From contig JAZLBY010000059.1 in the NCBI GenBank assembly GCA_045613965.1, positions 1-56,285 of the forward strand: DNA of 56,285 bases, in the 5' to 3' direction. Position numbers and translations under genes: made by a program. This document shows, one piece after another, positions 2,769 to 53,271 of the stretch; positions within the stretch are counted from its first letter, which is position 1, and each line of letters opens with the position of its first letter. The DNA is from Candidatus Scatovivens sp. (GTDB lineage Bacteria > Bacillota > Clostridia > TANB77 > CAG-508). Under the pieces are notes generated by a model that was not told the DNA's origin, did not search any database, and saw only the letters and a list, made by a program, of their open reading frames with translations.

Positions 2769-2903
2769 ATGGGAGGTTTAAAAATATTTATGATATTTAT
2801 GATAATATCTATAATAGTATTATCAATTCAATTATATGTAATTTTTGAACTTTTAGAAACATTTAAAGAAGGAGAAAAAAGATGGGAGAAATTAAAATTT
2901 TAG
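2769..2903 (+). CDS. small membrane protein (44 aa)
   Basis: ATG directly after the upstream stop. The hydrophobic core IFMIFMIISIIVLSIQLYVIF fills an otherwise unexplained gap. Confidence 0.35.
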   Translation: MGGLKIFMIFMIISIIVLSIQLYVIFELLETFKEGEKRWEKLKF

Positions 2904-4807
2904 AATTATTTGGTGGTATAGGAGCAATAAGAAAAGCTTTTGAAAGACAAAATATACCACATAAAGTTGTAGATTATGTGGAAATAGATAAATATGCAGT
3001 TGCAAGTTATAATGCAATGTTTAATGAAAATTTTGAACCACAAGATATAACAAAATGGGATAAAAATATAGATGTAGATTTTATAATGCACGGTAGTCCT
3101 TGTCAAGATTTTTCAGTTGCTGGAAAACAAGCAGGTGGAGATTTAGGTAGTGGAACAAGGTCAAGTTTAATGTACGAAACAATAAGAATAGTAGGCAAAT
3201 TAAGACCAAAATATGTAATGTGGGAAAATGTAAAGAATTTATTGTCAAGTAAACATAAACACAATTTTGATGCTTATATAGAAACTATGGATATATTAGG
3301 ATATAATTCATATTATCAAGTTTTAAATGGAAAAGATTATGGAATACCACAAAATAGAGAAAGAGTTTATACAATATCTATTAGAAAAGACATAGATAAA
3401 GGAAATTTTGTATTCCCAGAGAAAGAAGAACTTAAATTAAGACTAAAAGATATGTTAGAGCCAAAAGTAGATGAAAAATATTATTTAAGTGATGATAAGG
3501 TTTCTAAAATAGAATGTAGTAATTTTATGCAAGAAAGAAAGAGAATACAAGAAAAGGAATACTCTGATACTATTTTAGCAAGAGATTGGAAAGACCCTAA
3601 ATGTGTAAGAGTTGGTGGAATATTTGATGATGAAAAATCTAAACACCAAGCAGGCAGTATATACGACAAAGAAGGTTTAGCTCCTACATTAGATGTTATG
3701 CAAGGTGGTTGGAGACAACCTAGTATCGTAGAAGAAAAATTACCAGGAGCTTATGGTAGAAATTTTGGTAGTAAAGGTAAAATACAAGATACAAATGGAG
3801 AATGTGATACATTACAAGCAGCAATGGGAAATGGTGGTGGAAATGTACCAATAATTAAAACAATAGGAAATTATATGCCAAGTGGACACGATGCAAGCAG
3901 AATAGTTGATAGTGAAGGTATAGCACCAACAGTTAAAGAAAATCATGGAACAGTAACAGCTATTGCTGAGCCATCAATAATAACACATAATATTGTTCAA
4001 AAAGTATTAGTTAGAAAGTATCCAGTTGACATAGAAAAATTAAAAGAAATATTAAGAGATGCTAAATTAGAAACAGAATTAACTAATAATGAACTTGCAG
4101 AAGAATTAAATATACCAAGAACTCAAATAGAACATTATTTTAGAAAAGATAATAGTTTTGCAATACCAGACCCTAATATTTGGTTTAGATTAAAACAATT
4201 ATTAAATATAAAAACCAATGAATTTGATGAAAGTATAATGACATTTGAAGAAAAAGAAGGAGTTTATGAAAAAGCTAATAGAGTATATGATGAACAAGGA
4301 ATTGCTCCAACATTAACTCAACAAGAAGAAAAAATAATAGAATATGAAAGAACTCCACTTAAATTTTTAAATAGAAATCAAAAAAATATTGAAGGAGATT
4401 ATGCTTATTGTATAGATAGTAGCAACACTGGTGGAATAAAAGAAACAACATATTTAGTAAAACCTGAATTAACAAACAATGATAAAAGATTAAAAAAATT
4501 AGTAGAAAATACTGACTTTGAAGAAGGAAAAGTTTTAAATTTAGATACATATAATCAAACTACTAACGAAAATATAAGTCAAACATTAACAGAACCAAAT
4601 CATAATACTCAAAGATTATTTGATGGCTATAGAATAAGAAAACTTACTCCAAAAGAATGTTGGAGACTTATGGGATTTAATGATGAAGATTTTGAAAGAG
4701 CAGAGAAAATAAATAGTAATACACAATTATATAAACAAGCAGGAAATTCTATTATCGTAAATGTATTAGAAAAAATATTGACAAATTTATTCGACAATCG
4801 AAAATAA
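2882..4807 (+). CDS. dcm: DNA (cytosine-5)-methyltransferase with a greatly expanded variable region (three TRD-like modules plus an HTH-like insert)
   Basis: Motif I FGGIG, motif IV SPCQDFS, motif VI ENV, motif VIII QNRERV, motif IX RKLTPKECWRLMGF, motif X QAGNSI. About 400 aa lie between motifs VIII and IX, containing EGLAPTL, EGIAPTV and QGIAPTL. Confidence 0.9.
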   Translation: MGEIKILELFGGIGAIRKAFERQNIPHKVVDYVEIDKYAVASYNAMFNENFEPQDITKWDKNIDVDFIMHGSPCQDFSVAGKQAGGDLGSGTRSSLMYETIRIVGKLRPKYVMWENVKNLLSSKHKHNFDAYIETMDILGYNSYYQVLNGKDYGIPQNRERVYTISIRKDIDKGNFVFPEKEELKLRLKDMLEPKVDEKYYLSDDKVSKIECSNFMQERKRIQEKEYSDTILARDWKDPKCVRVGGIFDDEKSKHQAGSIYDKEGLAPTLDVMQGGWRQPSIVEEKLPGAYGRNFGSKGKIQDTNGECDTLQAAMGNGGGNVPIIKTIGNYMPSGHDASRIVDSEGIAPTVKENHGTVTAIAEPSIITHNIVQKVLVRKYPVDIEKLKEILRDAKLETELTNNELAEELNIPRTQIEHYFRKDNSFAIPDPNIWFRLKQLLNIKTNEFDESIMTFEEKEGVYEKANRVYDEQGIAPTLTQQEEKIIEYERTPLKFLNRNQKNIEGDYAYCIDSSNTGGIKETTYLVKPELTNNDKRLKKLVENTDFEEGKVLNLDTYNQTTNENISQTLTEPNHNTQRLFDGYRIRKLTPKECWRLMGFNDEDFERAEKINSNTQLYKQAGNSIIVNVLEKILTNLFDNRK

Positions 4808-7000: not shown

Positions 7001-8467
7001 ATGATTAGTTTGACAGAAAAAAGAAGTGAGCTAGATTTAATAGCTATAAATAAAAAAGAAAACAAACAAAATTTAGATATACCATATACTTGGATAACTG
7101 TCAATGAAAAGCCTGCAAAAGATGAAGATTATGTAAAAAGAGAATATACTTTAAATCCTATGGAACTAGCAAACTGGATAAGAAACAATACTGATTATAT
7201 TTTTGTTAGAGGAAATGCTAGTGAAGGCACACTTACATATATATACATAAATGGTTATTATAAATATATCTCTGATAACGAATTTAAAAGCTTTATAAAA
7301 TCATTTATTCCTTACCAATTAAGAAAAACTAGAGATATAAATGAAATCTTTTCAGACTTAACAACTGATATGAAGTTTGTTGATTATGAACAACTAAATT
7401 CTGATGAAGATATAATAAATTTTCAAGATGGAATATTAAACTTAAAAACATGGGAATTAGAACCACATTCTTCTGATATATTATCTACAATCCAAATTCC
7501 AGCAAAATATAGAGATATAGAAGAAGCAGATGCAACTGCTGTTGAATTTGAAAAATATATGATGACATTATGCGATAATGATATAGAAACATATTTATTA
7601 TTATTAGAATGCTTAGGTTTAATAATTTCTAATATTTATGGGTATAGAACAAAAAAAGCTTTGTTTTTAGTTGGAAAAGGAAACACAGGTAAATCTCAAT
7701 TAAAAAAGTTGGCAGAATTTCTTGTGGGAAATGATAATGTTTCAAATATAGATTTAAAGAAAGTAAACGAAAGATTTGGAGCAGCAAGTTTATACCAAAA
7801 AAGATTATCTGGTTGTAACGATATGAGTTATCAAAGAATAGAAGATATGAGCATATTCAAGCAATTAACTGGTGGAGATAGTATAGAAATAGAATTTAAA
7901 AACAAGAACCCTTTTAATTTCTTGTACAAAGGCTTCTTATGGTTCAATTGTAACAAATTGCCTTTATTTGGTGGAGACACAGGCAAATGGGTATACGATA
8001 GAATTATGCCAGTATATTGTAATAATGTAATAGAAAAGAAGGACCAAGACCCTTTCTTATTCGATAAAATATTAGAAGAAAAGAATTCAATACTAAAGAA
8101 TATATTAATAGCACTAAAACAATTTATAAATAATGAATACAAGTTTGATGAACCTGAAAAAATGCGTGAAAGCAGAGAAAAATATGAAATAGAAAACAAT
8201 ACATTATTAACTTTTATTAAAGAATGCTGCGAATTAAAATATGAGGTTTCTCCTTATTCAAGAACTAAAAGAAGAGTATTCAAAGATGCTTACGATGTTT
8301 GGATAAAGAAAAACAACAATGGAAAAGGAAAACTTAATTCAAAAGAAGTTAGTAAAATACTTGAAGAAAGATATGAAGAATATGGAGTAAAAAGCAACGG
8401 CACAATGTATATGTCAAAATTAATAGTAAAACCAGAGGCGTTAGAAGAATTAGGCATATATGAATAA
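7001..8467 (+). CDS. D5 / P4-family primase-helicase (SF3 NTPase)
   Basis: Walker A VGKGNTGKS, then a Walker B-like region and a C-terminal winged-helix-like tail. Size and layout match phage/plasmid primase P4-family C-terminal domain proteins. Confidence 0.75.
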   Translation: MISLTEKRSELDLIAINKKENKQNLDIPYTWITVNEKPAKDEDYVKREYTLNPMELANWIRNNTDYIFVRGNASEGTLTYIYINGYYKYISDNEFKSFIKSFIPYQLRKTRDINEIFSDLTTDMKFVDYEQLNSDEDIINFQDGILNLKTWELEPHSSDILSTIQIPAKYRDIEEADATAVEFEKYMMTLCDNDIETYLLLLECLGLIISNIYGYRTKKALFLVGKGNTGKSQLKKLAEFLVGNDNVSNIDLKKVNERFGAASLYQKRLSGCNDMSYQRIEDMSIFKQLTGGDSIEIEFKNKNPFNFLYKGFLWFNCNKLPLFGGDTGKWVYDRIMPVYCNNVIEKKDQDPFLFDKILEEKNSILKNILIALKQFINNEYKFDEPEKMRESREKYEIENNTLLTFIKECCELKYEVSPYSRTKRRVFKDAYDVWIKKNNNGKGKLNSKEVSKILEERYEEYGVKSNGTMYMSKLIVKPEALEELGIYE

Positions 8468-18204: not shown

Positions 18205-18561
18205 TTATTTTTCCACTATTTGTTTAATGTATTTATAGTTTTCTTTTTCTTTTTCTGCTATTTTCATTAACATATTTTTATCTTGTGCATCGGTAGCCAT
18301 TTCAGCAATATCTTCTAGTTTTCTATATCCTTCGTGCATATCTTCCATAACCATTTCTAGTTCTTCATGATAATCTTCACGATAGTTTCTATAGTTTCTG
18401 TAATTTCTATTGTTTATTCTGCCGCCTCTTCTATCATAATCCCTTCTGTAATCATCTCTATAGTCATCTCTATAGTCATCTCTATAATCATATCTATAAT
18501 TATCTCTGTAATCTTCTCTGTTGTTTCTATAATCATCTCTATTTGCATACATTTCGTTCAT
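18205..18561 (-). CDS. R/D/Y-repeat protein with an alpha-helical C-terminal domain
   Basis: NREDYRDNYRYDYRDDYRDDYRDDYRRDYDRRGG ... NYRNYRNYR, then a helical tail. AAGGAG RBS. Confidence 0.6.
   Translation of the reverse strand: MNEMYANRDDYRNNREDYRDNYRYDYRDDYRDDYRDDYRRDYDRRGGRINNRNYRNYRNYREDYHEELEMVMEDMHEGYRKLEDIAEMATDAQDKNMLMKIAEKEKENYKYIKQIVEK
18379..18545 (-). repeat. in-frame 9-bp and 12-bp tandem repeats
   Basis: atagtttct x3, then several atctctatagtc-like units. These encode NYR and RDDY repeats. Confidence 0.7.
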
Positions 18562-18578: not shown

Positions 18579-19049
18579 TTAGTATGGTATAGTAGTAAAA
18601 TAATTAAATATTTTACCTTCTTTGGCATCTTCATCTAATATAAAATCCTTTGATAAGCAAATATACATTTCTAATTCTTCCTCTTTGTTTTTTGAGAATT
18701 TTTCAATTGTATCTCTATTGTCATTAAATTTGCTATTCATGACTATAAAAAAATCAACTGGTCTTATATTGTCTATTCCATATTCTTCTTGAATTTCTTT
18801 TGTTTCTTCTATAGTCCATCTTTGCCCATAAGGTTTCATTTTAGAGACAATTGTTTCTGCCATTTGGCGATTTAAAACAGAACCATAAGCCATTTTATAT
18901 ATGTACATTTCATATTTTTTATATGCTTCTTCATCATATTCTTTAAGTATTTCCATTAAATCAACTAAGATTTCTGTTAATTTTATCATTTCTTTTATAT
19001 CGCCATCTTCTGCTATTTTTTTAATGCAATCTCTTATGTCTATGTCCAT
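18579..19049 (-). CDS. hypothetical protein
   Basis: ORF with AAAGGAG RBS. No motif that I can name. Confidence 0.55.
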   Translation of the reverse strand: MDIDIRDCIKKIAEDGDIKEMIKLTEILVDLMEILKEYDEEAYKKYEMYIYKMAYGSVLNRQMAETIVSKMKPYGQRWTIEETKEIQEEYGIDNIRPVDFFIVMNSKFNDNRDTIEKFSKNKEEELEMYICLSKDFILDEDAKEGKIFNYFTTIPY

Positions 19050-26603: not shown

Positions 26604-26975
26604 TTAATTTAATGTTGCAGTACCTTTAAATGCACCGCTAAAAGTTATAGTTATTTGATTTAAAGAATTATAGTTTACTTCTCCTATAACTTCATCTCCT
26701 GCACTATTTATAATAGTTACAGAAGGATATTTATCAAGATTATGAGTTATAACCCATTCACTTGAAGCCTCATTTTGTGTATATAGAAATGTTTTATCAT
26801 TTTCTATTCCTAAATCTTCTGATGCTACATTTCCACTTAATTCCACATTATTTATTTTTGGTTTATTTGTTAATTCATTATAATTAGTAGTTCCGACAAA
26901 AACTGTTTCATTTGTATCAATATTTATTTCGTTGTTGTCGTTTTCTAAATTAATTATTATTTCTTGATTATCCAT
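26604..26975 (-). CDS. tail fibre / baseplate-associated protein
   Basis: The NYNELTNKPKINNVELSGN motif is typical of fibre proteins. Confidence 0.5.
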   Translation of the reverse strand: MDNQEIIINLENDNNEINIDTNETVFVGTTNYNELTNKPKINNVELSGNVASEDLGIENDKTFLYTQNEASSEWVITHNLDKYPSVTIINSAGDEVIGEVNYNSLNQITITFSGAFKGTATLN

Positions 26976-27339
26976 TAGACCACCTCATTGTTGTAAATTT
27001 ATCAGTTACAATAAACTTACCTACTACTTTTTGTTTTGGTTTAATTCCATCATAATAAACTGTAATGTCATAGCCATATTCTTCATTAAGTAATAATTCT
27101 TTTGTGTCTATACTATTTATTGTTATATCATATTTTCCTGTATCTTGGTTATATACAATTCCATTTTCTAATGTTTTTTGAAACTTAAATTCTTCATCTT
27201 CTGGTGAATGCCTAACTGTCATAAATAATAAATCATCATTGCCTAATGGAGTAAGTTGTTTTTGAGTATCTAGAAAACCAACAGAAATTATCTGATAATC
27301 TTCTTTTGGAATTTTTATATCATATTTTTTTGTACTCAT
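26968..27339 (-). CDS. hypothetical structural protein
   Basis: ORF in the tail module with an overlapping start. Confidence 0.45.
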   Translation of the reverse strand: MSTKKYDIKIPKEDYQIISVGFLDTQKQLTPLGNDDLLFMTVRHSPEDEEFKFQKTLENGIVYNQDTGKYDITINSIDTKELLLNEEYGYDITVYYDGIKPKQKVVGKFIVTDKFTTMRWSNG

Positions 27340-27351
27340 ATTTCCTCCTTT

Positions 27352-27693
27352 CTATACATCATTTGCATTTTTATATTTATCTATTGTTTTTAAATATTCA
27401 TAAGCATTTTCTATTGTCATATCTTCATCATAAGGTAATTGTATAAAATCAGCTTCTATATATACATTTATTCCATTATTTAATATTTCTTGCTCTTCTT
27501 GCGTTAATTGTTCTTCGTTAGCACTTTTCATTTGTGCTTCTTGATATTCCTTTTCTTTTTGTCTTTGATTTTCATTTATATAAGAATTTACTTCTATAGT
27601 ATTTGATATATTTGTTATTTTATTTAAACTTGTTATCCTATGATAATTTAAAATTATTCCATTTTCTAATTCTATTCCTTTTTGTAATGCCAT
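27352..27693 (-). CDS. hypothetical structural protein
   Basis: ORF in the tail module. Confidence 0.45.
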   Translation of the reverse strand: MALQKGIELENGIILNYHRITSLNKITNISNTIEVNSYINENQRQKEKEYQEAQMKSANEEQLTQEEQEILNNGINVYIEADFIQLPYDEDMTIENAYEYLKTIDKYKNANDV

Positions 27694-42766: not shown

Positions 42767-44221
42767 TTATTTTGAAGTTTCAACGACTTTTTTATTGTTA
42801 TTTAAGTCATTTCCACTTTCATTAACATTAGTTGTTTGGGTTTGACTTTCTTTTGCTTCATCTTCCCAATATTTTTTACCTTTTGCTGCAATTTCTACAC
42901 TATCTGTAGTCATATCTGCAATAGTTAAAGCATCTTCTGGCGTTATTGTCTTTGTTCCAACTAAAGTAGCATAGCTTTGAGCTTTTGATTGTAAATTGTC
43001 ATTTTTATTTCTACTAAACTTAATATCCATATCAATAGTTTTTATTGAATTGTTTATTAAATTTAATTTTTGCAATATTGTAATTATTACTGCTAATTGT
43101 TTTTTCTTAGCAATTTTGAAATAGTTTTCTTTAATTCTAGCAACGATTTCAATATCAGCCCAGCCATCTCTTAATTTAACAGCATCGCCTGTGTCTCCAC
43201 CGCCACCGCCTCTAGTCTTTCTGTCTGGTATTCCTATTATTGTTTTATATGCTTCTTCAAAATATTCACGCAAATTTTCAATTCCCATAGCATCTAGCTG
43301 TTGGTATATGAATTTTGCATCTACATTTTGTCCTATGTTTCCTACTATTTCTAATATTCTATTTTTCTTTATTTTTTCTGCTGTATTATCATTTAATTCA
43401 GCATTTATTATTACAAGTAAGCTTTTTATAACATTTTCTACATCATTTACGCTATCAGAAGCGATTTGATTTAAAGCATTTAATACGCTAATGGCTGTTT
43501 CAAAATCTCCCATTAGGAAATTATTGTTTTGGACCATTATAATAGGATTTAAACCTAGAGGGTTTACATCTACTTCTATTAATTCTGCTTGATTACTTAA
43601 AGAGTTATTTCCTTTGCAAGTAATTCTATAGATTTCTGTATCTGTAAAGCATAAGAAGTATGTGTTTATTTTATCTGTGTAATATGTACAGCTTAATATA
43701 TCTGGATTTCCCATTTTAGCTGATTGTATAATAAATGTTGATAAAATATCTAAACTATTTATTTTTAAAGGAATATCTGGCATATAGTCAGAATACAATT
43801 CTTCTGTAGGTAATGTGCAAATATAACCAATGCCTGTGATTGCAGCCATTGTAGCAACTTCATTGTCTACTGTACTTGAATTTTCATATTCCATTATATC
43901 TGCAATTTTTTCTATATCTTTTTTATATTTTGTTTTTCTTTGAATTATTTGTGTAGGCTTTCCAAAAGTATAACCTACTAAATCTCTTATGCTAGAATAA
44001 GCATAATTTACTGTAATTTTATTGTTTATTCCAGAAGCATAAGCAGGATTTCTCTTTGATATGTCTTGTTGTCCTTTATAATAATCTATAAGGTACTTCA
44101 TATCTCTAACATTTTCTCTATGATAGCTCCAAGCTTCATTTAAAACATCAATTATAGTATCTTTATTTATTTCTTTATCAATTATTATTTTTCTTCTACC
44201 TTGACCTATCAAATCTCCCAC
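42767..44221 (-). CDS. portal protein (SPP1 gp6-like)
   Basis: 484 aa, in the usual position downstream of terL. Exact start uncertain (GTG at 44221 or TTG at 44212). Confidence 0.8.
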   Translation of the reverse strand: MGDLIGQGRRKIIIDKEINKDTIIDVLNEAWSYHRENVRDMKYLIDYYKGQQDISKRNPAYASGINNKITVNYAYSSIRDLVGYTFGKPTQIIQRKTKYKKDIEKIADIMEYENSSTVDNEVATMAAITGIGYICTLPTEELYSDYMPDIPLKINSLDILSTFIIQSAKMGNPDILSCTYYTDKINTYFLCFTDTEIYRITCKGNNSLSNQAELIEVDVNPLGLNPIIMVQNNNFLMGDFETAISVLNALNQIASDSVNDVENVIKSLLVIINAELNDNTAEKIKKNRILEIVGNIGQNVDAKFIYQQLDAMGIENLREYFEEAYKTIIGIPDRKTRGGGGGDTGDAVKLRDGWADIEIVARIKENYFKIAKKKQLAVIITILQKLNLINNSIKTIDMDIKFSRNKNDNLQSKAQSYATLVGTKTITPEDALTIADMTTDSVEIAAKGKKYWEDEAKESQTQTTNVNESGNDLNNNKKVVETSK

Positions 44222-44632: not shown

Positions 44633-46426
44633 CTAAATTCCAAGTTCTTCTCTACTATGGTTGCTATGTACTTCTCCCATAGTGCTTTTGCAACCTAGAA
44701 CATTTTGAGCTAAACTAGCTAAGCTATCTGGAATATCATCATGTTGTTTTCCTTGTACTTTCTCTGTTTGGCTAAATTTAAACAACATGTCTAAGAAATA
44801 ATTGTACATCATATTATTTTTTATCATTAGTCTTTTCTTAATCATCAGTCTGTATTGGCTTCTTTGTGCTCCTGTTATAAATCCTACTGATGCAAGTATT
44901 CTATCTAATTTACTCTTTGTTGTTGGAGCTTTGCTACAAGTTATTGCACACCATGTTATTCCTTTTTTCTTTAGTTCTTCTTTTACTGCTTCTGCATACA
45001 TATCTCCACCATTGTTTGCTTCAAAATGGCAATGTGTTATGTGATATTCTATTATTTTATTTACTACCATTGGGATTGTTTCTTCTTTTTTATCTTTGCT
45101 TACATAAACATCTATTAAAGGACAATCCCCATTTTTATATTCACTACATATTGGCATTGATAAATCATCTCCGCCACCCCAAGCTACATCGACTGCAGCT
45201 ACATTCCTTACAAATTCTTTTTCATCATCATATTGCTCATATTTATTCATTTCATCTTCACTAAATAATATTCCTAGTCTCTCAATTGGGTGTTGTTGTA
45301 TTAAACACTCAAAACTTACTGTGTCCATTAAGTCTTTATCTTCCAAAAACATCTCCGTAGTTATTGCAAATCCATATTTATAATTGAAATTGCTCTCGTT
45401 TTTCTCATTTAGACCAGGTATTTTAATTACTTTTATTCTTTGTGGTGCAGTTTTTCTATAATACTCAATAATTCTGCTTAATGGGTCATTTATACTAAAT
45501 ATTGTTCCAATTAAAAGCAGCTTGCATCTACCCTGCATACGCTTTTTAAGAGTACCTGTGAATTCCTCCCATTTCTTATCCATTACATCTTTATTACTTG
45601 CTTCTTCTATGTTCTTTACCAAGTCATCTACATACAATATGTCATGTGCTCTAGTTCTACCTGTGATTGAACCATCAAATCCTGCACAATACAATGTATA
45701 TTCTGAATGTTTGCTCTTTTTCCCATCATTTCTACAATCAAGAGACATTGTGTCAGCACTCTTATATGTTATTTCTAATTTTGGGAATATCTTTTGATAA
45801 TTCTCGTTTTCATCTTCTATTAATGTCATTACTCCATTGTAAAACTTATCTTTTGCTATATTTGCAGAATATGATACCATCATTTTAGGTAAATCTGGAT
45901 TTTTACCTATTGCCCATGCCATAAATCTCTTTCCTGCCTCTGTTTTGCCTGTTCCTTGTGGCATTGATATTGTCATTACTGCTCTTTCTTTATAATAAAA
46001 CTTAGTTAGTTCCCAATTCACATAATATAATACACAAGTTCTTGGTGCTAAAAATTGTTTTTCCTTCTCTATTCCAAATTCTAGTGCTATTGCAAAGTAA
46101 GAATATAAATATCTTGCTAAATAATAGTAATTTTGCTTCATTATTTCGTTTAATTTTATCTTATTTTCTAATAATTCCTCTTTTTTTATCAAATTTTCTA
46201 GTTCTTGTATTAAAAATATCGAAATTTTCAAGCTTTCAGTATAAACAAGGTTGTCTTTAAACATATCATATTTTACTTTGTCTTCTTCTTTTTCTATTTC
46301 TCCTAAATAATCTCTTAACAAATTTAACTTCTGTGCTCTTAGTAAATTTGGCATTTTTTCTTGTAATTGTGTCCTAAGTAAATTTATATTAGAGTTTATC
46401 TGGTTAATATCTCTATTTTCTTCCAT
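44633..46426 (-). CDS. terL: terminase large subunit
   Basis: Walker A-like MPQGTGKTE, 597 aa, upstream of the portal. TAGGAGG RBS. Confidence 0.85.
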   Translation of the reverse strand: MEENRDINQINSNINLLRTQLQEKMPNLLRAQKLNLLRDYLGEIEKEEDKVKYDMFKDNLVYTESLKISIFLIQELENLIKKEELLENKIKLNEIMKQNYYYLARYLYSYFAIALEFGIEKEKQFLAPRTCVLYYVNWELTKFYYKERAVMTISMPQGTGKTEAGKRFMAWAIGKNPDLPKMMVSYSANIAKDKFYNGVMTLIEDENENYQKIFPKLEITYKSADTMSLDCRNDGKKSKHSEYTLYCAGFDGSITGRTRAHDILYVDDLVKNIEEASNKDVMDKKWEEFTGTLKKRMQGRCKLLLIGTIFSINDPLSRIIEYYRKTAPQRIKVIKIPGLNEKNESNFNYKYGFAITTEMFLEDKDLMDTVSFECLIQQHPIERLGILFSEDEMNKYEQYDDEKEFVRNVAAVDVAWGGGDDLSMPICSEYKNGDCPLIDVYVSKDKKEETIPMVVNKIIEYHITHCHFEANNGGDMYAEAVKEELKKKGITWCAITCSKAPTTKSKLDRILASVGFITGAQRSQYRLMIKKRLMIKNNMMYNYFLDMLFKFSQTEKVQGKQHDDIPDSLASLAQNVLGCKSTMGEVHSNHSREELGI

Positions 46427-46453
46427 TTGTGCCTCCTACAAAACAAGACTAGC

Positions 46454-46633
46454 CTAATCAGCTAGCCCCATATATTCTTTTACAGCTTTCGATATTATCT
46501 CGTTCATACTTTCAAAATTGTTAGTTCCCCTTGTGCTTTCACTTCTTGCCTTAAGCCATTGATGTTGATAATATGGAAGTCTAACACTAAATCTTATTGT
46601 TTTCCCTAGTTTTTCTTTATTTTCTCTAGCCAT
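46454..46633 (-). CDS. ribbon-helix-helix (CopG/Arc-like) protein (59 aa)
   Basis: KTIRFSVRLP (beta strand), then two helices (QWLKARSE, MNEIISKAVKEYM). Sits immediately upstream of terL. Below the track cut-off. Confidence 0.45.
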   Translation of the reverse strand: MARENKEKLGKTIRFSVRLPYYQHQWLKARSESTRGTNNFESMNEIISKAVKEYMGLAD

Positions 46634-46679
46634 TTTATCTCTCCTTTATATTATCATAAACCCTTTGACTTTTCAATAT

Positions 46680-46934
46680 CTATTGTGGCATTTTTATAAC
46701 TATTCCAGTTTCTTTAGTTTTTAATGCTCTATCTATTACTGCTTCTAATACATTTAAAACTTCCATTGCTCTTTCTTCTGTTTCATATTCTCCTAATTGT
46801 ACAACTTCCATTCTATCTCCTATAGCAACAATACTATTTAATTCTCCTGTTGCTTTTTGACCATATAAAGATATATTCTTTCTAGTACAATCAACTAAAG
46901 ACACTCCTGTTTTAGTTCGTATTTTTATATCCAT
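46680..46934 (-). CDS. hypothetical protein
   Basis: ORF in the gene train. Confidence 0.5.
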   Translation of the reverse strand: MDIKIRTKTGVSLVDCTRKNISLYGQKATGELNSIVAIGDRMEVVQLGEYETEERAMEVLNVLEAVIDRALKTKETGIVIKMPQ

Positions 46935-47133
46935 AATATTCTTCCCCTTCTACATGTTTATACCATAATTCATTTATTCTACAACACTCTTTATAGCCTT
47001 TCTCAAATTGCACCAATATAAAATTCTTATATATACCTACAACAATGGCGTTTTGTGTTCGTATTATTTTCTCTCTTGTTTCTCCATTTTTGTAAGGTCT
47101 TATTACTTTTACTGGCATTCCTATTTCTACCAT
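46912..47133 (-). CDS. hypothetical protein
   Basis: ORF with GGGAGG RBS. Confidence 0.5.
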   Translation of the reverse strand: MVEIGMPVKVIRPYKNGETREKIIRTQNAIVVGIYKNFILVQFEKGYKECCRINELWYKHVEGEEYYGYKNTN

Positions 47134-47166
47134 ACTTTTGACCTCCCAAAACTTTAAAATAATTAA

Positions 47167-47242
<76 letters not shown>

Positions 47243-47286
47243 ATATACGCAACTAAGTCTACATGAGACCTAGTTACTAATCTTTT

Positions 47287-47724
47287 TTATTTTCCTGTGC
47301 TTCCAAAGCCTCCAGTTCTTTCTCCATCTGCTGCATCATCTTCTGTTGTGCCATATTCTACAAATATTCCTTGCATCATTTTTTCTCCTGCTTTAAGTAC
47401 AATGTCTTCATCTCTCATATTATAGAACAATCCTGCTATTTCCCCTTCATTATCTTCGTTGTTATAATAGTCTGCATCAACTACCCCAACTCCATTTAAG
47501 ATAATAAGTCCTTTTTTCTTTGGATTAGAACTTCTATTGAATAACAATAATGTTTCATTATCTGGGAATATTGCTTTTACACCACTCTTTACCATTGTTA
47601 TTTCATGGCTTTTACATATTGTGTCTTCTGGTACTATAAAATCATAACCTGCACTTTTTGCTGTACTTCTTCTTGGTAATTCAATCTCCCCTTCTATTCT
47701 ACTTACTTTTTCAAATTTTCTCAT
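47287..47724 (-). CDS. dut: dUTPase
   Basis: SAGYDF, GVGVVDADYYN, MMQGIF, GGFGSTGK motifs. Confidence 0.85.
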   Translation of the reverse strand: MRKFEKVSRIEGEIELPRRSTAKSAGYDFIVPEDTICKSHEITMVKSGVKAIFPDNETLLLFNRSSNPKKKGLIILNGVGVVDADYYNNEDNEGEIAGLFYNMRDEDIVLKAGEKMMQGIFVEYGTTEDDAADGERTGGFGSTGK

Positions 47725-48266
47725 ATTCCTTTTTCCTCCTTATTTAAACATTTTCTACATATTGGGTAATATTTATCTTTGTCTCCGACTAATGTGTCTC
47801 CATTTTTCTTTATCTTGCACATTGTATATTCTGCTGCTTCTCCACATTTTTCACATTTTGCCTTTAGCAGCTCTATTTCATCAGCTATTCCCATTATTTC
47901 ACACATCTTCCCAAAAGGCTTTAGCTCACTTGTTGTCCTTAATCCTCCTACATATATCGTGTAACCTGCTCTATTTAAGTCTTCTAGCAGCATATAGTCG
48001 CCTTCAATAAATTGTGCTTCATCTATGATTATAACTTTTGTCGCTTCTTCTAATTTTCCTACAATGTCTTCAAATCTTTCTACTACATCTGCCTCTATTC
48101 TTATGTCTGTCTCCCTACTCTTTATATACGACTTGTCTCTCTTGTCTTTACTTGGCTTAAAACATTGTAAGTTTACTCCTTTGTTTATTTGTATATACAT
48201 CATGCCAATCTGTATTAGCCTTCCACTCTTTCCACTAAACATCGGTCCTGTTACTACATATATCAT
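47721..48266 (-). CDS. tdk: thymidine kinase
   Basis: VTGPMFSGKS P-loop, IIIDEAQF, C-terminal CEKCG ... CRKC zinc site. Confidence 0.9.
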   Translation of the reverse strand: MIYVVTGPMFSGKSGRLIQIGMMYIQINKGVNLQCFKPSKDKRDKSYIKSRETDIRIEADVVERFEDIVGKLEEATKVIIIDEAQFIEGDYMLLEDLNRAGYTIYVGGLRTTSELKPFGKMCEIMGIADEIELLKAKCEKCGEAAEYTMCKIKKNGDTLVGDKDKYYPICRKCLNKEEKGI

Positions 48267-48466
48267 TATTTTATTCTCCCTAAATATTCTAATCCTTTTT
48301 CTGTCTTTACTACTATGTAGTTTGATTTTATTAGTCTTCTAAACTTCCCTTCACTTATCTTCCCATCTCTTGTTATCTTTTGTCTATTTCTTGGTCTTAG
48401 TTCTATTCCTTTCTCAAACTCCCATTCATTTAATGTTTTTGTCTCCCTTTGTGGTTTTATATACAT
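48266..48466 (-). CDS. hypothetical basic protein
   Basis: ORF with AAGGAGG RBS. Confidence 0.5.
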   Translation of the reverse strand: MYIKPQRETKTLNEWEFEKGIELRPRNRQKITRDGKISEGKFRRLIKSNYIVVKTEKGLEYLGRIK

Positions 48467-48488
48467 AACTATTTCCTCCTTATTTATC

Positions 48489-48749
48489 TTATTTGTTTTT
48501 ATTTAATATTTCTTTTGTTCTCTCTATCTCCGCTTCTAGGTCCATTATAGTTGCCGCTAAACTCTTCATCGAACTTTCTAATAACTCTACTCCACTTACA
48601 CTCTCTAATTCATCATGTATCTTCCCTAGCTCGTTTAAATGGTACTTCATCGCTTTTATCGTTTTGCTCGTTCCTTTTATGTTTATTCTTAATATCTTAT
48701 CACAATCTTCTTCTAACTTCCCATTTAGCAACTCTTCTACTATATTCAC
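48489..48749 (-). CDS. hypothetical coiled-coil protein
   Basis: The GTG at 48749 follows a GGAGGG RBS. The track start (GTG at 48779) has none. Confidence 0.45.
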   Translation of the reverse strand: MNIVEELLNGKLEEDCDKILRINIKGTSKTIKAMKYHLNELGKIHDELESVSGVELLESSMKSLAATIMDLEAEIERTKEILNKNK

Positions 48750-49142
48750 TCTTTTCCCTCCATACCACTTAATACTCACTATGTAAGAAAGTAATAACTT
48801 ATTCCCATCTCAACCAATTAAAGCATGCCCTCATTGGTACTCTCGCACAGGTTTCTGTGTCGCTAGGTAGCTCTCCCTAGTCTTACTACACCCTTCTTTA
48901 CTTCCCTACATACTAAATATTAAATATTATTTGTAAGAGTAACTAGAATTCCCTTACTCTACAATATACCGATTGGCTAAGACCAAATCAACAACAAATG
49001 ATTTGTAAATGTATTCAAAACATTGGTAATCTCTTACCTAGAAAGGAGTAAACATGCGATATTAAATGCGTTTTTTCGTTTCACATATTTACTTAGGTTG
49101 GGTTTCTTTTTTTTGATGATATCTAGTATCTCATCTTCTTAT

Positions 49143-49171
49143 TTTATATCATAGTGGTATCAAAATGTCAA
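49143..49171 (-). promoter_or_regulatory. strong promoter facing the late arm
   Basis: On the minus strand: TTGACA, 17 nt spacer, TATAAA, with a TGa extended -10. About 390 nt upstream of the first CDS. Confidence 0.5.
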
Positions 49172-49347
49172 CCCCTTTTTATATTTTTTTAAAAAAAATT
49201 TTTATAGGTTTTTAGGGAGGGGTATAGTGGTATCATTTTGATTTTTGTGTTTTTCGGTGGAAGAGAGGTTGACTACGCCGCCCCTGTCGATTTTGTCGAA
49301 ATAGGGGGCGGGGTGTGTTGGGTGTGGTGGTTTTTGTCTTGTTTTCT

Positions 49348-49402
49348 TGTAATATTTTTGTAACAATTCTGTAATATTTCTGTAACAAAAATGTAATATT
49401 TA
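49348..49402 (+). repeat. five exactly phased 11-bp repeats, TGTAATATTTy alternating with TGTAACAAwwm
   Basis: Units start at 49348, 49359, 49370, 49381 and 49392. The array ends 15 bp before the -35 box. Confidence 0.85.
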
Positions 49403-49417
49403 ATTTTAATAAAAGCA

Positions 49418-49446
49418 TTGACTTTTTAAAAAAATCATGGTAAAAT
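49418..49446 (+). promoter_or_regulatory. promoter of the opposite-strand cassette
   Basis: TTGACT, 17 nt spacer, TAAAAT, preceded by TGg. Confidence 0.55.
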
Positions 49447-49592
49447 TATTATAATAAAAGAAGAGGAAAAAGAAGCGGCGTAATGGTGTTATTGGTAAAA
49501 GTAGAAAAAGCCCCGCAACATTCCAAAAAACTTTTATTATAAAAAAATTATAAAATAGAAAGGCAGGGGAAACCCTGGAAAAGGTGGTTAAT

Positions 49593-49967
49593 ATGGACTA
49601 TAATTATTTTGAAAATGTAAAAGAAGACATTAAGGAAGCAATCAAAGAAAGATATGAAAAAGAAGAAATTCTAGGAGATGAAATAGAGCAAGATGCTCTT
49701 TATGATGATTTATTTATTGATGACAGCGTAACAGGTAACGCCTCAGGCTCTTACACATTCAGCACATATAAGGCAGAGGAATACATCGCACACAATTTAG
49801 ACTTGTTAAAAGAAGCAATTGAAGAATTCGGCGGAGAATATGGAGAAGCCTTAGAGCGTGGGGCTGAATTCTGCGATGTAACCATCAGGTGCTATGTATT
49901 AGGGCAAGCTATAGGGGAAGCAATAGAAGAATTAAAAGAAGAACTTGAAGAAGAAGCGGAGGCGTAA
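49593..49967 (+). CDS. highly acidic protein of unknown function
   Basis: ATG after AAAGGTGG. D/E-rich throughout. The sequence is G+C-richer than the bulk genome. Confidence 0.6.
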   Translation: MDYNYFENVKEDIKEAIKERYEKEEILGDEIEQDALYDDLFIDDSVTGNASGSYTFSTYKAEEYIAHNLDLLKEAIEEFGGEYGEALERGAEFCDVTIRCYVLGQAIGEAIEELKEELEEEAEA

Positions 49968-49970
49968 GAG

Positions 49971-50099
49971 ATGAAAAAAAAGTTAATAAAAAATATTAAA
50001 CTTTTAATCGGTGGAATAATTGGAACGGCTGCAATTTTTGGAGTAATTGCAATAATTCAATTAATAGTAAATACAATTTGCAGCGTAATATTAAAATAA
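49971..50099 (+). CDS. small membrane protein (42 aa)
   Basis: TM segment LLIGGIIGTAAIFGVIAIIQLIV. Starts 3 nt after the previous stop. Confidence 0.4.
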   Translation: MKKKLIKNIKLLIGGIIGTAAIFGVIAIIQLIVNTICSVILK

Positions 50100-50113
50100 A
50101 AGGGGTGTAAAAT

Positions 50114-50266
50114 ATGAAAAATTTTAAAATAATAATATTAAATGGTGCAGGCTGTGAGATTTACAATAAAATCATAAAAGCAGAAAATGAAAACAAAGCA
50201 ATTATTGAAGTTTTAGACAATGAAGTTATTTATTCAGATGATACAATAACAATTGAAGAAGTTTAA
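50114..50266 (+). CDS. hypothetical protein (50 aa)
   Basis: ATG after an AGGGGTG RBS. Confidence 0.4.
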   Translation: MKNFKIIILNGAGCEIYNKIIKAENENKAIIEVLDNEVIYSDDTITIEEV

Positions 50267-50294
50267 AAAATAGAAAGGTTAAAAGGTGGAAAAT

Positions 50295-50618
50295 ATGGAA
50301 AAATTAAAAAATAATATTAATAAATTAATAATCGATGGAGTTAGACCAGAACAACTTGAAAATTTAGAAGAGTTACAAGCTCGTTACGATGCAAGGCAAA
50401 GCTTTTACAAAAAAGCTTATACAGGTACTTACTTAAATTGTCTATATTTAAAAAGTTATAATACTATTGTTGCTTGTATATTTCAAAATCAATTAAGAAT
50501 TTATGGTGCATTCTCACAAACAACAGCAAGACACATAAGAGAATTTGCAAAACAAAACGGATTTGATGGTATAATAACATATCAAGACATGAAAAACACA
50601 TGCGTAATAAGTAAATAA
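50295..50618 (+). CDS. hypothetical protein
   Basis: ATG after AAAGGTGGA. Contains the SYNTIVA ... SQTTARHIREF motif, which I cannot assign to a family. Confidence 0.55.
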   Translation: MEKLKNNINKLIIDGVRPEQLENLEELQARYDARQSFYKKAYTGTYLNCLYLKSYNTIVACIFQNQLRIYGAFSQTTARHIREFAKQNGFDGIITYQDMKNTCVISK

Positions 50619-50646
50619 TAAAAAAACAGGTTAGGAGGTGGAAGCC

Positions 50647-51228
50647 GTGGGCTTAAATGATAACACTAAAAATATTGAACTAGCACTAAAAGAGAAAAAC
50701 AGCATACAAAAGCAAAAAGAAGCGGAAAAGCTAAGAAAACAGGAAGAAAAAGAAAACGCCGAGAGATTGGCGGAAGATATCAAAGAAGCAATCAAAACAG
50801 AATTTCGCAGGTATTTAGATATTGCAGGCGTAACTTATGCGATAGAGTTTTACAGCATAGAACGAAAAAACGAAATTTTGCAAGATATACTAGCAACATT
50901 TGGAGCGGTTGGCACTATGGAGCTAAAAAAAGAAGGGTACACAGGAACAAAAATCCAATTTTGCAGCAACAAAAAAGAGATTGAGAAGGTGTTCAATGAT
51001 AATTATTATAAAATACTAAAACAAGAAGAGGCGGCTTATAAGTTAAATGATAAATACTTATATCATAAACAATTGCAGGAATTCAAAGAAGAGCCAGCAG
51101 AAGAAAGAAGCGGGGCGGATTGGTTCAAAGTATTAAAATATATCTTTTACATAATAGGCGGCGTGGTATTCTTTCCAATTGTATTTATAGGATTTTTAAT
51201 CCTTGCAGTGTGTAAAAGTAGCAAATAA
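50647..51228 (+). CDS. coiled-coil protein with a C-terminal TM anchor
   Basis: GTG 8 nt after TAGGAGGTGG. C-terminus YIFYIIGGVVFFPIVFIGFLILAV. Confidence 0.55.
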   Translation: MGLNDNTKNIELALKEKNSIQKQKEAEKLRKQEEKENAERLAEDIKEAIKTEFRRYLDIAGVTYAIEFYSIERKNEILQDILATFGAVGTMELKKEGYTGTKIQFCSNKKEIEKVFNDNYYKILKQEEAAYKLNDKYLYHKQLQEFKEEPAEERSGADWFKVLKYIFYIIGGVVFFPIVFIGFLILAVCKSSK

Positions 51229-51257
51229 AAAGAAGGTTCAAGCCTTCTTTTTATTTG
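51229..51257 (+). terminator. rho-independent terminator
   Basis: AGAAGG / CCTTCT stem with a TTTTTATTT tail. Confidence 0.55.
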
Positions 51258-51264
51258 GTATATT

Positions 51265-51301
51265 GAAGCGGTCAAATGCTTAATTTTGCCGCTTCTTTTT
51301 G
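51265..51301 (+). terminator. second terminator hairpin
   Basis: GAAGCGG / CCGCTTC stem with a TTTTTG tail. Confidence 0.45.
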
Positions 51302-51551
51302 TTGCTCAAATAATCAAAAATAAGCCGTTTTATGATTTAGACATATAAGTATATTTCTAAAAAAATAAAATGGCTTAAAATCGATTTTCATTGATTTAAA
51401 ATCAAGTTGATTTTTAAAAAATCGTTGATTTTCTGCGAAACATTGCACAAAATACTAATTTTGTGCAGTTTACATAATAGGTTACAACCTGCCCTGGTGG
51501 GTGGGTATTTTTTTTGTCGGTGGTCCGCTTCCAGATTTCAAAAAAAGCCCG

Positions 51552-51704
51552 AAAGTCGAAAGTCGTAGCAAAATTTTGAAAAAAAATTTTTTCAAAAAGT
51601 CGCAAAAGTCGTAAAGTCGCAAAAGTCGTATAATTTTTCCAATTAAAACACACCCCAAAGTCGTAGGCAAAAGTCGTAAAAGTCGTAGCTATTCCTGAAA
51701 GTCG
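51552..51704. repeat. array of 10 same-orientation AAAGTCG(YA) motifs
   Basis: Copies start at 51552, 51559, 51596, 51605, 51613, 51622, 51657, 51670, 51679 and 51698. Consensus AAAGTCGTA. Confidence 0.9.
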
Positions 51705-52285
51705 CCGATGTTTCCTAAATCGATAAGAGAAGCGGAACTACTTTCAGGTAATTCTGGCATTGCATTCAAAATTTCATTCTCATCATTTGGTTTAGCAGCA
51801 TCACTAATTGGTCCAGCTTGAATTTCTTGTACATCTTTCATGTCATAGAAGTTTTTAGCCCTGAAAATATAAACTGGTGCATTAACCTTATTCAAAGTCG
51901 CCATCGAAGCATCATAATTGCATACATAATCCTTTGCTTTTTTTATAGTGTTCGTGAACTCAACGTTGTACTTACCCTGTTCAATTTCATAAAAAGTCGT
52001 TCTGCACCAACCTGAGCAAAGAGCGAGACCTTCAACAGTAGGAGGCAAACTTTCCTCAGAGCACATAGAGAGGTAATCGATAAATCTATTTTGAAGTTCT
52101 TCGACAGACTTAGGTTTTTCCATACCCATTTTCATAACTTCAAGATTAAATTTCAAAACTTTTTTAGCGATTTCTCTGTCTTTATCAGTTTTAGGTTTGT
52201 TGTCATGAAGAGCTCCGATATTTCTTCTACCCATTTTAAAAGGTTTAGCATCATTATCTAGTATTTCTGTATCATCATCAAACAT
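51689..52285 (-). CDS. terS: terminase small subunit
   Basis: LPPTVEGLALCSGWCRTTFYEIE ... FTNTIKKAKDYV ... VYIFRAKNFYDMKD fits the Firmicute-phage TerS pattern (P.T.eGLAL.LG.sr.T ... iKrAk ... iF.LKN) as I recall it. ATG lies 9 nt after GAGGTG. Confidence 0.7.
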   Translation of the reverse strand: MFDDDTEILDNDAKPFKMGRRNIGALHDNKPKTDKDREIAKKVLKFNLEVMKMGMEKPKSVEELQNRFIDYLSMCSEESLPPTVEGLALCSGWCRTTFYEIEQGKYNVEFTNTIKKAKDYVCNYDASMATLNKVNAPVYIFRAKNFYDMKDVQEIQAGPISDAAKPNDENEILNAMPELPESSSASLIDLGNIGDFQE

Positions 52286-52334
52286 ATTAAATAACACCTC
52301 ACATTAAAACATTAAAAATATTTCTTTAAGAGAA

Positions 52335-52363
52335 ATTTTATCAAAAGAGACAAAAAAAGTAAA
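52335..52363 (-). promoter_or_regulatory. possible terS promoter
   Basis: On the minus strand: TTTACT, 17 nt spacer, TAAAAT, with a TGa extended -10. Confidence 0.3.
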
Positions 52364-52413
52364 GAGAGAAAAAGAAAAAAAATATAATATAAAAAATGGA
52401 AAAAAATGGAAAA

Positions 52414-52678
52414 CTCCCTAAAAAGGGCATTTTCTCCCTAACTCCCTAAAAACTCCCTGGGTTTTGCCTTACTCTCTCAAGGGATAGGGAGAAAGGGAGG
52501 TTTTTTTCTTTAAGTTTAATAAAATAAAATATAATAAAATAAAATATATATATAAATATATATAAGAAGTAGGAGGGGGTATTTTTTGAAAAAAGCTCCC
52601 TAACACTAATGATATCAACGAAAAATGGCAGGGAGTTTTTATTTTTAAAACTCCCTAACTCCCTAAAAAACTCCCTAA
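52414..52678. repeat. two clusters of CTCCCTAA direct repeats (7 exact and 1 variant) plus inverted copies
   Basis: Exact copies at 52414, 52434, 52442, 52596, 52651, 52659 and 52671. Variant CTCCCTGG at 52453. Inverted TAGGGAG at 52485 and CAGGGAG at 52629. Confidence 0.9.
52515..52565. other. 51-nt tract containing only A and T
   Basis: ttaataaaataaaatataataaaataaaatatatatataaatatatataa lies between the two CTCCCTAA clusters. Confidence 0.8.
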
Positions 52679-52981
52679 AAGTATTGAAAAACGCTGTTTA
52701 TGATAAACTAGGACTAAAATAAAAAATAGTGAAAAATTAACAAGAAAATTTATTTTTGATAAAATTATGAGAAAAAAAATGGTAAAAAATGATAAAAATG
52801 ATATATTTTTTTTTACAACACACTTTTCACTTTTATAGAAAAAAATTTTTTTTAAAAGAAATATTCCAACTAATAAAAGTCGTAAAGTTGTGAAAGTCTT
52901 AATTGGTAAGAGAAACAAACATAATTTACATAATTACATTAACTGGAATTAAAATTATTTTAATTATTTTTCAAAAAGGTA

Positions 52982-53010
52982 TTGACAAAAGAAAAAAGTT
53001 ATTATAAGAT
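52982..53010 (+). promoter_or_regulatory. promoter of the + strand (early) arm
   Basis: TTGACA, 17 nt spacer, TAAGAT. The first + strand gene follows at 53044. Confidence 0.5.
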
Positions 53011-53043
53011 AAGAGTATCAAATCAAGAAAGGAGTTGGGAGGA

Positions 53044-53271
53044 ATGGATTTAGGAATAAAGCTTCAGCTAAATGAAATGGAGGACAAAATAAACACAATT
53101 AAAGAGGAACTAGACTTTATAGGAAGCCAGAACTTGCTAATAATAAAGCAAAATGCAGCAAATGAACTGATGAATAGGGTAATACTAAATAAACTGGGAA
53201 TTGAGCCAGAAACAATTGATGAAATGATTAATGACATTAAAGAAAAAATAGACAAAGAATTTGGTGTTTAA
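53044..53271 (+). CDS. hypothetical coiled-coil protein (paralog of 53628..53807)
   Basis: ATG 9 nt after AAAGGAG. The IIKQNAANELMNRVILNKLGIEPETIDEMI segment resembles the paralog. Confidence 0.5.
   Translation: MDLGIKLQLNEMEDKINTIKEELDFIGSQNLLIIKQNAANELMNRVILNKLGIEPETIDEMINDIKEKIDKEFGV

Follow-up and report, generated by a model that had tools for sequence, protein, structure and literature searches.

What is the function of a dense array of identical, co-oriented heptamers at the 3' end of a small terminase gene, and which protein reads it? The array was found in the window, by which we mean the whole analysed stretch of 56,285 bases. The heptamer AAAGTCG has 15 exact matches on the two strands of the window, compared with 1.99 +/- 1.52 expected from 100 dinucleotide-preserving shuffles; the shuffles gave at most 7 matches, and none of the 100 reached 15. 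An earlier, sequence-only reading of this DNA had held the motif to be locally enriched, and the count of 15 against about 2 bears this out. Forms of AAAGTCG with one mismatch are at the chance level (106 found, 107 expected), hence the enrichment is specific to the exact heptamer. In a scan of the whole window for clusters of 6-mers, the heptamer array ranks first.

Ten of the matches are packed into 153 bp at positions 51552-51704, and all ten share one orientation, as that reading had reported; they are perfect and lie on the plus strand. They start at 51552, 51559, 51596, 51605, 51613, 51622, 51657, 51670, 51679 and 51698, with start-to-start spacings of 7 / 37 / 9, 8, 9 / 35 / 13, 9 / 19. 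The spacings are near those of the sub-clusters described previously, but the third group is looser (13, 9) and the tenth copy stands alone (19). On the coding strand of terS, the small terminase gene, the heptamer reads CGACTTT, and the majority of the array copies extend to TRCGACTTT. The features of the array and of its surroundings are as follows.

51552..51704, minus strand: heptamer array, ten perfect copies of CGACTTT on the terS coding strand, arranged as an abutting pair (51552-51565), a group of four (51596-51628), a group of three (51657-51685) and a single copy (51698-51704)
51552..51565, minus strand: distal pair of abutting copies, CGACTTTCGACTTT, better conserved than any other unit of the array
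51574..51598, no strand: imperfect A/T-rich palindrome AAAATTTTGAAAAAAAATTTTTTCAAAA, lying between the distal pair and the group of four
51632..51648, minus strand: conserved box CTTTAATTGGAAAAA (minus-strand reading), separating the proximal and central heptamer groups
51894-51900 and 51993-51999, minus strand: in-gene pair of exact AAAGTCG, encoding the conserved peptides MATL and TTF
52876..52899, minus strand: upstream mini-cluster AAAGTCGTAAAGTTGTGAAAGTCT, one perfect copy and two with one mismatch, oriented like the array

The array straddles the terS stop codon. The stop TAG (CTA on the plus strand) occupies 51689-51691, between copies 9 and 10. Copy 9 (51679-51685) lies 3 nt downstream of the stop, and copy 10 (51698-51704) coincides with the codons for Asp-Phe in the TerS C-terminus, ...GDFQE; the last copy was thus wrongly taken to overlap the stop codon itself. 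As a whole, the array occupies the intergenic region that follows terS, where the flanking genes converge, and a plus-strand terminator at 51487-51515 adjoins it. The spacings are irregular (7-37 bp) and the unique spacers are conserved, unlike in a microsatellite, a simple tandem repeat whose identical units adjoin head to tail. The box at 51632-51648 recurs on the minus strand upstream of the late operon (48814-48822), and this second copy is kept in a related phage locus (L325). Its word CTTTAATTGG was considered as a general late-promoter element and rejected, as it is not enriched in the window. Whether the in-gene copies at 51894 and 51993 serve as sites is uncertain; another related locus, L001, has two CGACTAT words at the equivalent MATM codons of terS. 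The weaker cluster at 52876-52899, also noted from the letters alone, is present about 590 bp upstream of the terS start and is possibly a second, weaker site.

The gene that adjoins the array and the two other genes of the packaging machinery found nearby are listed here.

51689..52285, minus strand: terS, predicted P22 gp3-type small terminase, 198 aa (Pfam, PHROG and fold)
44633..46426, minus strand: terL, large terminase subunit, best cultured match Maintenon TerL (36.5% identity)
42767..44221, minus strand: SPP1-type portal (Pfam/PHROG)

Profile matches and the predicted fold indicate that the product of the open reading frame at 51689..52285 is a genuine P22-gp3-type small terminase. It matches the Pfam family PF16677 (GP3_package) with 33.9 bits (cut-off 29.4, E = 3.6e-8) and PHROG 606, annotated as 'terminase small subunit'; nearly all of its 109 homologues have PF16677. 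In the protein, a basic and disordered N-terminal arm (KMGRRNIGAL) precedes a helical core, which contains an HTH-like segment PPTVEGLALCSGWCRTTFYEIE, and the C-tail is acidic. Among the homologues the arm takes the forms KMGRRNIGAL and KGRGGxxNFP. An AlphaFold monomer model built with 26 homologues has a confident helical core (pLDDT >90). The top five Foldseek matches to this model in the PDB are all chains of 3P9A, the P22 gp3 nonamer (probability 0.98-1.00, TM 0.52-0.56 on the target, E about 0.1-0.4), and the next matches have a probability of about 0.1 or less. The start codon at ATG 52285, preferred in the sequence-only reading, is likely the true one, since the homologues begin with MFDD and it is preceded, at a distance of 9 nt, by a GAGGTG ribosome-binding site; the GTG start at 52297 proposed by the ORF tool falls inside this site.

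The large terminase, the presumed partner that cuts and translocates DNA, is encoded on the same strand as terS, 5.3 kb downstream of it. The gap between terS and terL is occupied by a plus-strand gene island (49584..51228), a thymidine kinase, a dUTPase and a tRNA-Thr. No terminal overlap was found in the window.

Phage loci for comparison were collected by a pattern scan of IMG/VR for the array and by a TerS-based scan, and include loci from MAGs. About 20 IMG/VR and MAG loci have a CGACTTT array at the terS stop codon or a few bases from it, always on the coding strand; their TerS proteins are 27-73% identical and their G+C content varies from 25 to 54%. The first copy begins exactly 2 nt past the terS stop in twelve loci, and overlaps the last terS codons in the window, L049 and L077. 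The array layout is kept in the nearer relatives, metagenomic contigs of ~50-59 kb with TerS 40-73% identical; one of them, of 56,486 bp, was binned with a Clostridia MAG from a Hadza gut. In these phages the abutting CGACTTTCGACTTT pair always ends the array (L210, L325, L326, L328, L329 and the window), and in L328 it is the sole remnant of the array. The pair is held in a hairpin loop in L325, L326 and L328, with stems that differ between phages (GCTAG/CTAGC, CCTCCA/TGGAGG, TGTG/CACA). The A/T palindrome at 51574-51598, which the earlier reading had recognized as separating the clusters, is indeed present, but it is conserved only in an A+T-rich sub-clade (L001, L210, L325, L326); the high-G+C relatives have a CGACTAT-bearing sequence in its place. 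Upstream of terS, single same-strand copies occur at a distance of 78-253 bp in L327, L328 and L329, and in the high-G+C clade copies are located directly before the ribosome-binding site and over the terS start codon.

A further sample was obtained by choosing loci by TerS peptides only, which gave 29 TerS clusters (below 85% identity). With an array defined as at least three same-strand (CG/TA)ACT[TA]T words within 700 bp after the stop, arrays of CGACTTT, CGACTAT or GTAACTT were found behind terS in 16 of the 29 clusters, always on the coding strand. The co-travelling of the array with terS, which the earlier reading had raised as a matter for comparison, therefore holds for these 16 clusters and fails for the other 13, and this latter fraction counts against a role of the array in packaging. 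The TerS cores of two array-less loci, L002 and L003, are nearer to that of the window than those of the high-G+C clade are. Across all TerS loci, a sample that partly contains loci found via the motif itself, the motif density is 18.3 per kb between -40 and +300 bp of the terS stop, 0.75 per kb outside that zone and 0.63 per kb on the opposite strand.

The word varies by clade (CGACTTT, CGACTAT, (AT)GTAACTT(T)), while its position is unchanged. In L330 a quite different word, AAATCTGGTAATA, occupies the same position, and the first GTAACTT copy of L248 and of L275 includes the TAA stop codon. The only constant neighbour of the array is terS; every other adjoining gene changes. Genes downstream of the array are convergent in the clade of the window; those of the high-G+C clade are unrelated and run in the direction of terS. 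In L001 the array has survived the insertion of an HNH/NUMOD4 homing endonuclease between it and terS. L265 is a recombinant that received the array along with the 3' end of terS: its TerS has a core like that of L256, of the CGACTAT class, and a C-terminus and array of the L120 class. This combination would agree with a reader that tolerates CGACTWT as well as with plain physical linkage. Over a large group of uncultured phages of gut Clostridia, the array is conserved, and the variants of its word are specific to clades.

No TerS columns that track the motif variant were found in the HTH-like helix, the N-arm or the C-tail in an alignment of 36 representatives, and TerS proteins that are 60-68% identical precede CGACTTT, CGACTAT or GTAACTT arrays alike, which counts against packaging recognition. 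The copy number of the array ranges from 2 to 14 across the loci, so there is no fixed match to a nonamer, and this too counts against it.

At the sensitivity of blastn, no cultured phage resembled the window in its DNA, and protein-level matches were limited to Clostridium phage Maintenon and uncultured faecal contigs. A pattern scan of a genome collection gave 120 matches, only 5 of which are true relatives. Most of the 120 were perfect tandems of CGACTTT with a period of 7-8 bp in Bacteroidota, cyanobacteria and others, and were set aside as unrelated, having no adjacent TerS. The ends of the contigs cluster near the flanks of terS, some of them inside arrays, but not at homologous nucleotides. 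They are equally likely to be assembly breaks, and contig ends were rejected as a proxy of physical ends because their positions are not homologous.

Maintenon is the closest cultured relative (TerL 36.5% and TerS 27% identical) and the only experimental anchor for the locus. For this phage, PhageTermVirome gave 'DTR short (478 bp), 27,277' (PMC10197239, Table 2). Its terS gene occupies 26,723-27,472 in the GenBank record. If the table uses the GenBank frame, the repeat begins at codon 185 of the 249 codons of terS and spans the 3' end of the gene and about 280 bp behind it; a packaging terminus would then lie where the window has the array. The values given for other phages in the same table (PMC10197239) are consistent with the GenBank frame. 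As in the window, the Maintenon terS is located away from terL (3 kb), with repeat-bearing intergenic regions on both flanks. Unlike the window, Maintenon has no heptamer array, only 2-3 repeats of the TTGTTAGC type, and its TerS has an extra N-terminal HTH domain.

The existence of the array, its density beyond chance, its conservation, and the linkage of its position and orientation to terS are thus observations in need of an explanation. On balance, we favour the view that the array is a terminase packaging-recognition signal, which may be pac-like or may belong to a short terminal repeat as its recognition part; this view seems to us somewhat better than an even proposition. It is suggested by the retention of array position and orientation behind terS in very divergent phages while other neighbours change, by the adjoining gene, which appears to encode a genuine P22-gp3-type small terminase, and by the read-mapped terminal repeat of Maintenon, which would lie at the 3' end of terS. 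As is expected of pac- and cos-type signals, the array is located at the terminase genes and conserved with them. From the linkage we infer TerS as the binder; cutting would presumably take place at the array, in either a headful or a short DTR mode.

Repeated terminase-recognition words that adjoin terS are already known. In SPP1, sets of direct repeats of the pac region adjoin terS and flank a non-repeat segment that is cut by TerL (PMC4737164). The pac of SPP1/SF6 (pacL-pacC-pacR; boxes a, b and c) likewise consists of short direct repeats by terS, and ring-shaped TerS is thought to contact several pac repeats (PMC4737164; PMC9611059). A packaging signal in the window would follow the same logic, with direct repeats around the cut site by terS. 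However, the SPP1 repeats are located upstream of terS and over its 5' end, are few, and differ between boxes, whereas the window has one heptamer in an array that reaches 10-14 copies at the 3' end of terS. The TerS fold also differs, being of the P22 gp3 type in the window and of the G1P type in SPP1.

P22 has a small terminase of the same family (GP3_package; 3P9A), and its signal is likewise physically tied to terS. The P22 pac, however, has no array and consists of a single asymmetric site of 22 bp midway along gene 3, which counts against the packaging function proposed here; in place of a single ~22-bp mid-gene site, the window has a multi-copy array at and after the stop codon. The terS and terL genes overlap in P22 and are 5.3 kb apart in the window. 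The critical core of P22 pac is AAGATTTATCTG (PMC10996546). The P22 pac GAAGATTTATCTGAAGTCGTTA contains AAGTCG. This likeness to the heptamer was dismissed as a coincidence, given the core AAGATTTATCTG and the different place in the gene: by profile alignment, P22 pac codons 90-97 correspond to residues about 112-119 of the TerS of the window, where there is no copy of CGACTTT.

In P1 pac, hexamer repeats flank the cut, and in lambda cosB the elements R1-R3 are the sites of gpNu1; both systems likewise have several short words bound by a recognition subunit near the site of cleavage. The P1 hexamers are Dam-methylation sites inside pacA, and lambda has three 16-bp R elements together with an IHF site, and cohesive ends. 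Neither the P1 nor the lambda terminase is known to be related in sequence to that of the window. Binding of TerS to pac in vitro is weak and non-specific in P22, Sf6, SF6 and SPP1 (PMC9611059), which also counts against specific recognition of the array by TerS. Searching the literature in full text, we found no description of a heptamer array at the 3' end of a P22-type terS, and the form, with one heptamer repeated up to 10-14 times at this position, appears to be new.

If the array is a packaging signal, an oligomeric P22-gp3-type TerS would load onto multiple CGACTTT sites of concatemeric DNA and recruit TerL, which would make the initiating cut in or near the array. The candidate cut regions would be the non-repeat spacers, namely the A/T palindrome or the CTTTAATTGG box, and packaging would then run in the direction from terS to terL. 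We also put forward, far more tentatively and as something we would not ourselves expect to hold, the idea that the P22-gp3-type TerS family reads modular NNACTWT heptamers at the 3' end of the gene that encodes it, each subunit or arm of the ring taking one word, with the variants CGACTTT, CGACTAT and GTAACTT forming a natural specificity series.

The main rival is an operator or roadblock bound by another phage DNA-binding protein, for instance a ribbon-helix-helix repressor, that controls transcription at the 3' end of terS by convergent block or termination and might autoregulate terS via the upstream copies. Omega, MetJ and ParR are proteins that bind tandem short repeats, and spacings of 7-9 bp are typical of such binders. 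An Arc-like ORF (46454..46633; PHROG 3180, E = 4e-4) is encoded just upstream of terL. No counterpart of it was detectable in the other array-bearing loci, so that it was discarded as a conserved partner, and no candidate regulator accompanies the array. The position of the window array between convergent transcription units, by the plus-strand terminator at 51487-51515, would suit a roadblock, but in the high-G+C clade the downstream genes are co-directional with terS, and a convergent roadblock is thus not a general explanation. In L261, two extra arrays of a related word, GTAACTAT, with an 11-bp period, occupy the promoter regions of other genes and look like operators, which also counts against the packaging function. 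In the same direction point the copies that flank the terS ribosome-binding site and start codon in the high-G+C clade, and, in the window, five TGTAAYA repeats in exact 11-bp phase upstream of the strong island promoter (49418-49446). For a general operator, however, a strict tie to the terS stop codon is unexpected, and we consider this explanation rather unlikely. The Spo0A 0A box is TGTCGAA. It was compared with the array by inspection and rejected: only the abutting pair gives GTCGAA, and the conserved AAA flank and the GTAACTT variants do not fit.

Three further explanations were weighed, all of them improbable. Co-oriented short repeats next to an A+T-rich palindrome could be the iterons of a replication origin, with the palindrome as the unwinding element of a phage initiator; the phage does encode a D5_N/DUF5906 primase-helicase (7001..8467), and the same intergenic region has further repeated words (TTGATTT, AAAATCGAT) and a conserved palindrome. 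But the inter-cluster spacer is not A+T-rich in the high-G+C relatives, and the heptamer is nearly constant across phages with differing replication modules, whereas iterons normally co-vary with their initiator. A better origin candidate is found upstream of terS, at 52414-52677, with phage-specific words in both orientations around an A+T-rich spacer: CTCCCTA occurs 13 times in the window (2.7 expected), and 8 of these copies are within this region. The origin-like region adjoins a DUF927/HTH_56 or D5-type helicase gene in L327, L330, L054 and L086. An iteron origin at the array is not supported, and we regard it as improbable. Still less credit is given to a function of the repeats as RNA, in which CGACUUU words in the terS 3' UTR, and in some relatives near the start codon, would be bound in a TRAP-like manner by a ring protein, possibly TerS, with an effect on mRNA stability or translation. 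The terS transcript includes the array, which in relatives is followed by terminator-like hairpins, and the repeats are predicted to be unpaired; single copies or the pair are found in hairpin loops with differing stems in L001, L210, L325, L326 and L328, and the copies at the ribosome-binding site and start codon in the high-G+C clade would also be suitably placed. Yet the array transcripts of the window and of five relatives fold with no better energy than shuffles do (z from -1.6 to +0.35), a comparison of 48500-53200 with Rfam gave nothing at E <= 1, and small terminases are not known to bind RNA. The loops may simply be the free positions of a terminator embedded in a dense array of DNA sites. 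Least probable of all is a parS-like centromere of a plasmid-like prophage. Centromeres are frequently arrays of short direct repeats, but a Pfam or PHROG scan of ~38 ORFs of the window (small ORFs in part) revealed no ParA, ParB, ParM or TubZ, the array is linked to terS and to no partition gene, and relatives such as Maintenon are integrated prophages (PMC10197239). Among the binders named in the sequence-only reading, TerS in packaging is therefore the favoured one, and replication initiators and ParB-like proteins are left without support.

It is a recognized open question how small terminases select viral DNA (PMC9611059). Binding and structural studies would have a much stronger substrate in a dense array, with its up to 10-14 identical words, than in the single site of P22. 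If the family does read NNACTWT words, it would offer a multi-copy, sequence-defined TerS site in the P22 family, and a tractable system for the specificity of ring-shaped TerS. If the packaging function is confirmed, packaging sites, genome ends and likely start points of transduction would become predictable from metagenomic phage sequence, and assemblers and annotators would be warned that such arrays break contigs. Should the array prove to be an operator instead, it would still be a conserved regulatory element of this phage family.

The genes for the small and large terminase subunits, terS and terL, are 5.3 kb apart in the window (44633-52285), with a converging plus-strand gene island, a thymidine kinase, a dUTPase and a tRNA-Thr gene between them. 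A terS-terL gap of 3-5 kb is also kept in the metagenomic relatives and in Maintenon, the closest cultured relative. As a single gene, terS faces both its neighbours in the window's clade. The features of these regions are the following.

52400-52700, both orientations: second repeat system, upstream of terS
51639-51647 and 48814-48822, both minus strand: box CTTTAATTGG, non-coding in both places
51487-51515, plus strand: intrinsic terminator
51443-51467: palindrome TTGCACAAAATACTAATTTTGTGCA, followed by TTTACATAATA
51333-51430: TTGATTT/AAAATCGAT repeats
49418-49446: strong promoter-like site TTGACT-17-TGgTAAAAT, facing the plus-strand island (49584..51228)
49348, 49359, 49370, 49381 and 49392 (within 49348-49446): five TGTAAYA words in exact 11-bp phase
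48790-49060: relatively G+C-rich non-coding stretch of ~270 nt, upstream of the late operon
46454-46633, minus strand: 59-aa ORF directly upstream of terL, matching Arc-like ribbon-helix-helix repressors
840-1395 of the related phage locus L001, strand opposite to terS: homing endonuclease gene (NUMOD4 and HNH_3)

Conserved non-coding blocks occupy 51333-51515, between the island and the array of CGACTTT heptamers at the 3' end of terS. The TTGATTT/AAAATCGAT repeats and the palindrome with its following motif are kept in four related loci (L210, L325, L327 and L329). The phased TGTAAYA words immediately precede the promoter-like site of the island; similar 11-bp-phased arrays, made of GTAACTAT, lie upstream of the island genes of the related locus L261.

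The box CTTTAATTGG is not enriched overall in the window. One copy is within the array region and the other precedes the first gene of the late operon by ~35 nt, and relatives keep both. The box is possibly an element of the promoter -10 type. The G+C-rich stretch holds blocks strongly conserved with L325, to which the window is 76% identical across the entire intergenic region upstream of the late operon. Its folding is weakly better than that of shuffled sequences (z = -1.75), and it has no match in Rfam; the stretch might represent either a leader or non-coding RNA.

The product of the Arc-like ORF (PHROG 3180, E = 4e-4) is an alternative candidate for binding short tandem repeats; no counterpart of the ORF was found in the other array-bearing loci. 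In L001, the homing endonuclease gene is inserted between terS and the CGACTTT array. Elsewhere in the window, at least five copies of ~12-bp units (TCTATAGTCATC and variants) form a run at 18457-18526, between tRNA-Cys and the ORF at 18579..19049, and the early region (2882-4807) encodes a C5-cytosine DNA methyltransferase of 641 aa with two matched stretches. Each heptamer contains a CpG, which might in principle be methylated.

Contig ends were examined in the IMG/VR loci L245-L324. Of the 13 upstream ends, seven are concentrated 0-400 bp ahead of terS, and about eight of the 14 downstream ends cluster ~100-450 bp past its stop codon. The ends are at non-homologous nucleotides, some of them inside arrays. 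Repeat-induced assembly breaks and physical genome ends are equally likely explanations of this clustering.

In the repeat system upstream of terS, exact CTCCCTA words are at 52414, 52434, 52442, 52596, 52651, 52659 and 52671 on the plus strand and at 52485 on the minus strand. CTCCCTA(A)/TTAGGGAG words in either orientation flank a very A+T-rich stretch at ~52505-52570. The word at the equivalent place differs by relative: L001 has TTTCCCTA, the high-G+C clade of array-bearing relatives AGGTGAG/T, L054 TGAGCGGT and Maintenon TTAAAAGAT. A primase-helicase gene adjoins this repeat region in L327, L330, L054 and L086. The region looks like a replication origin.
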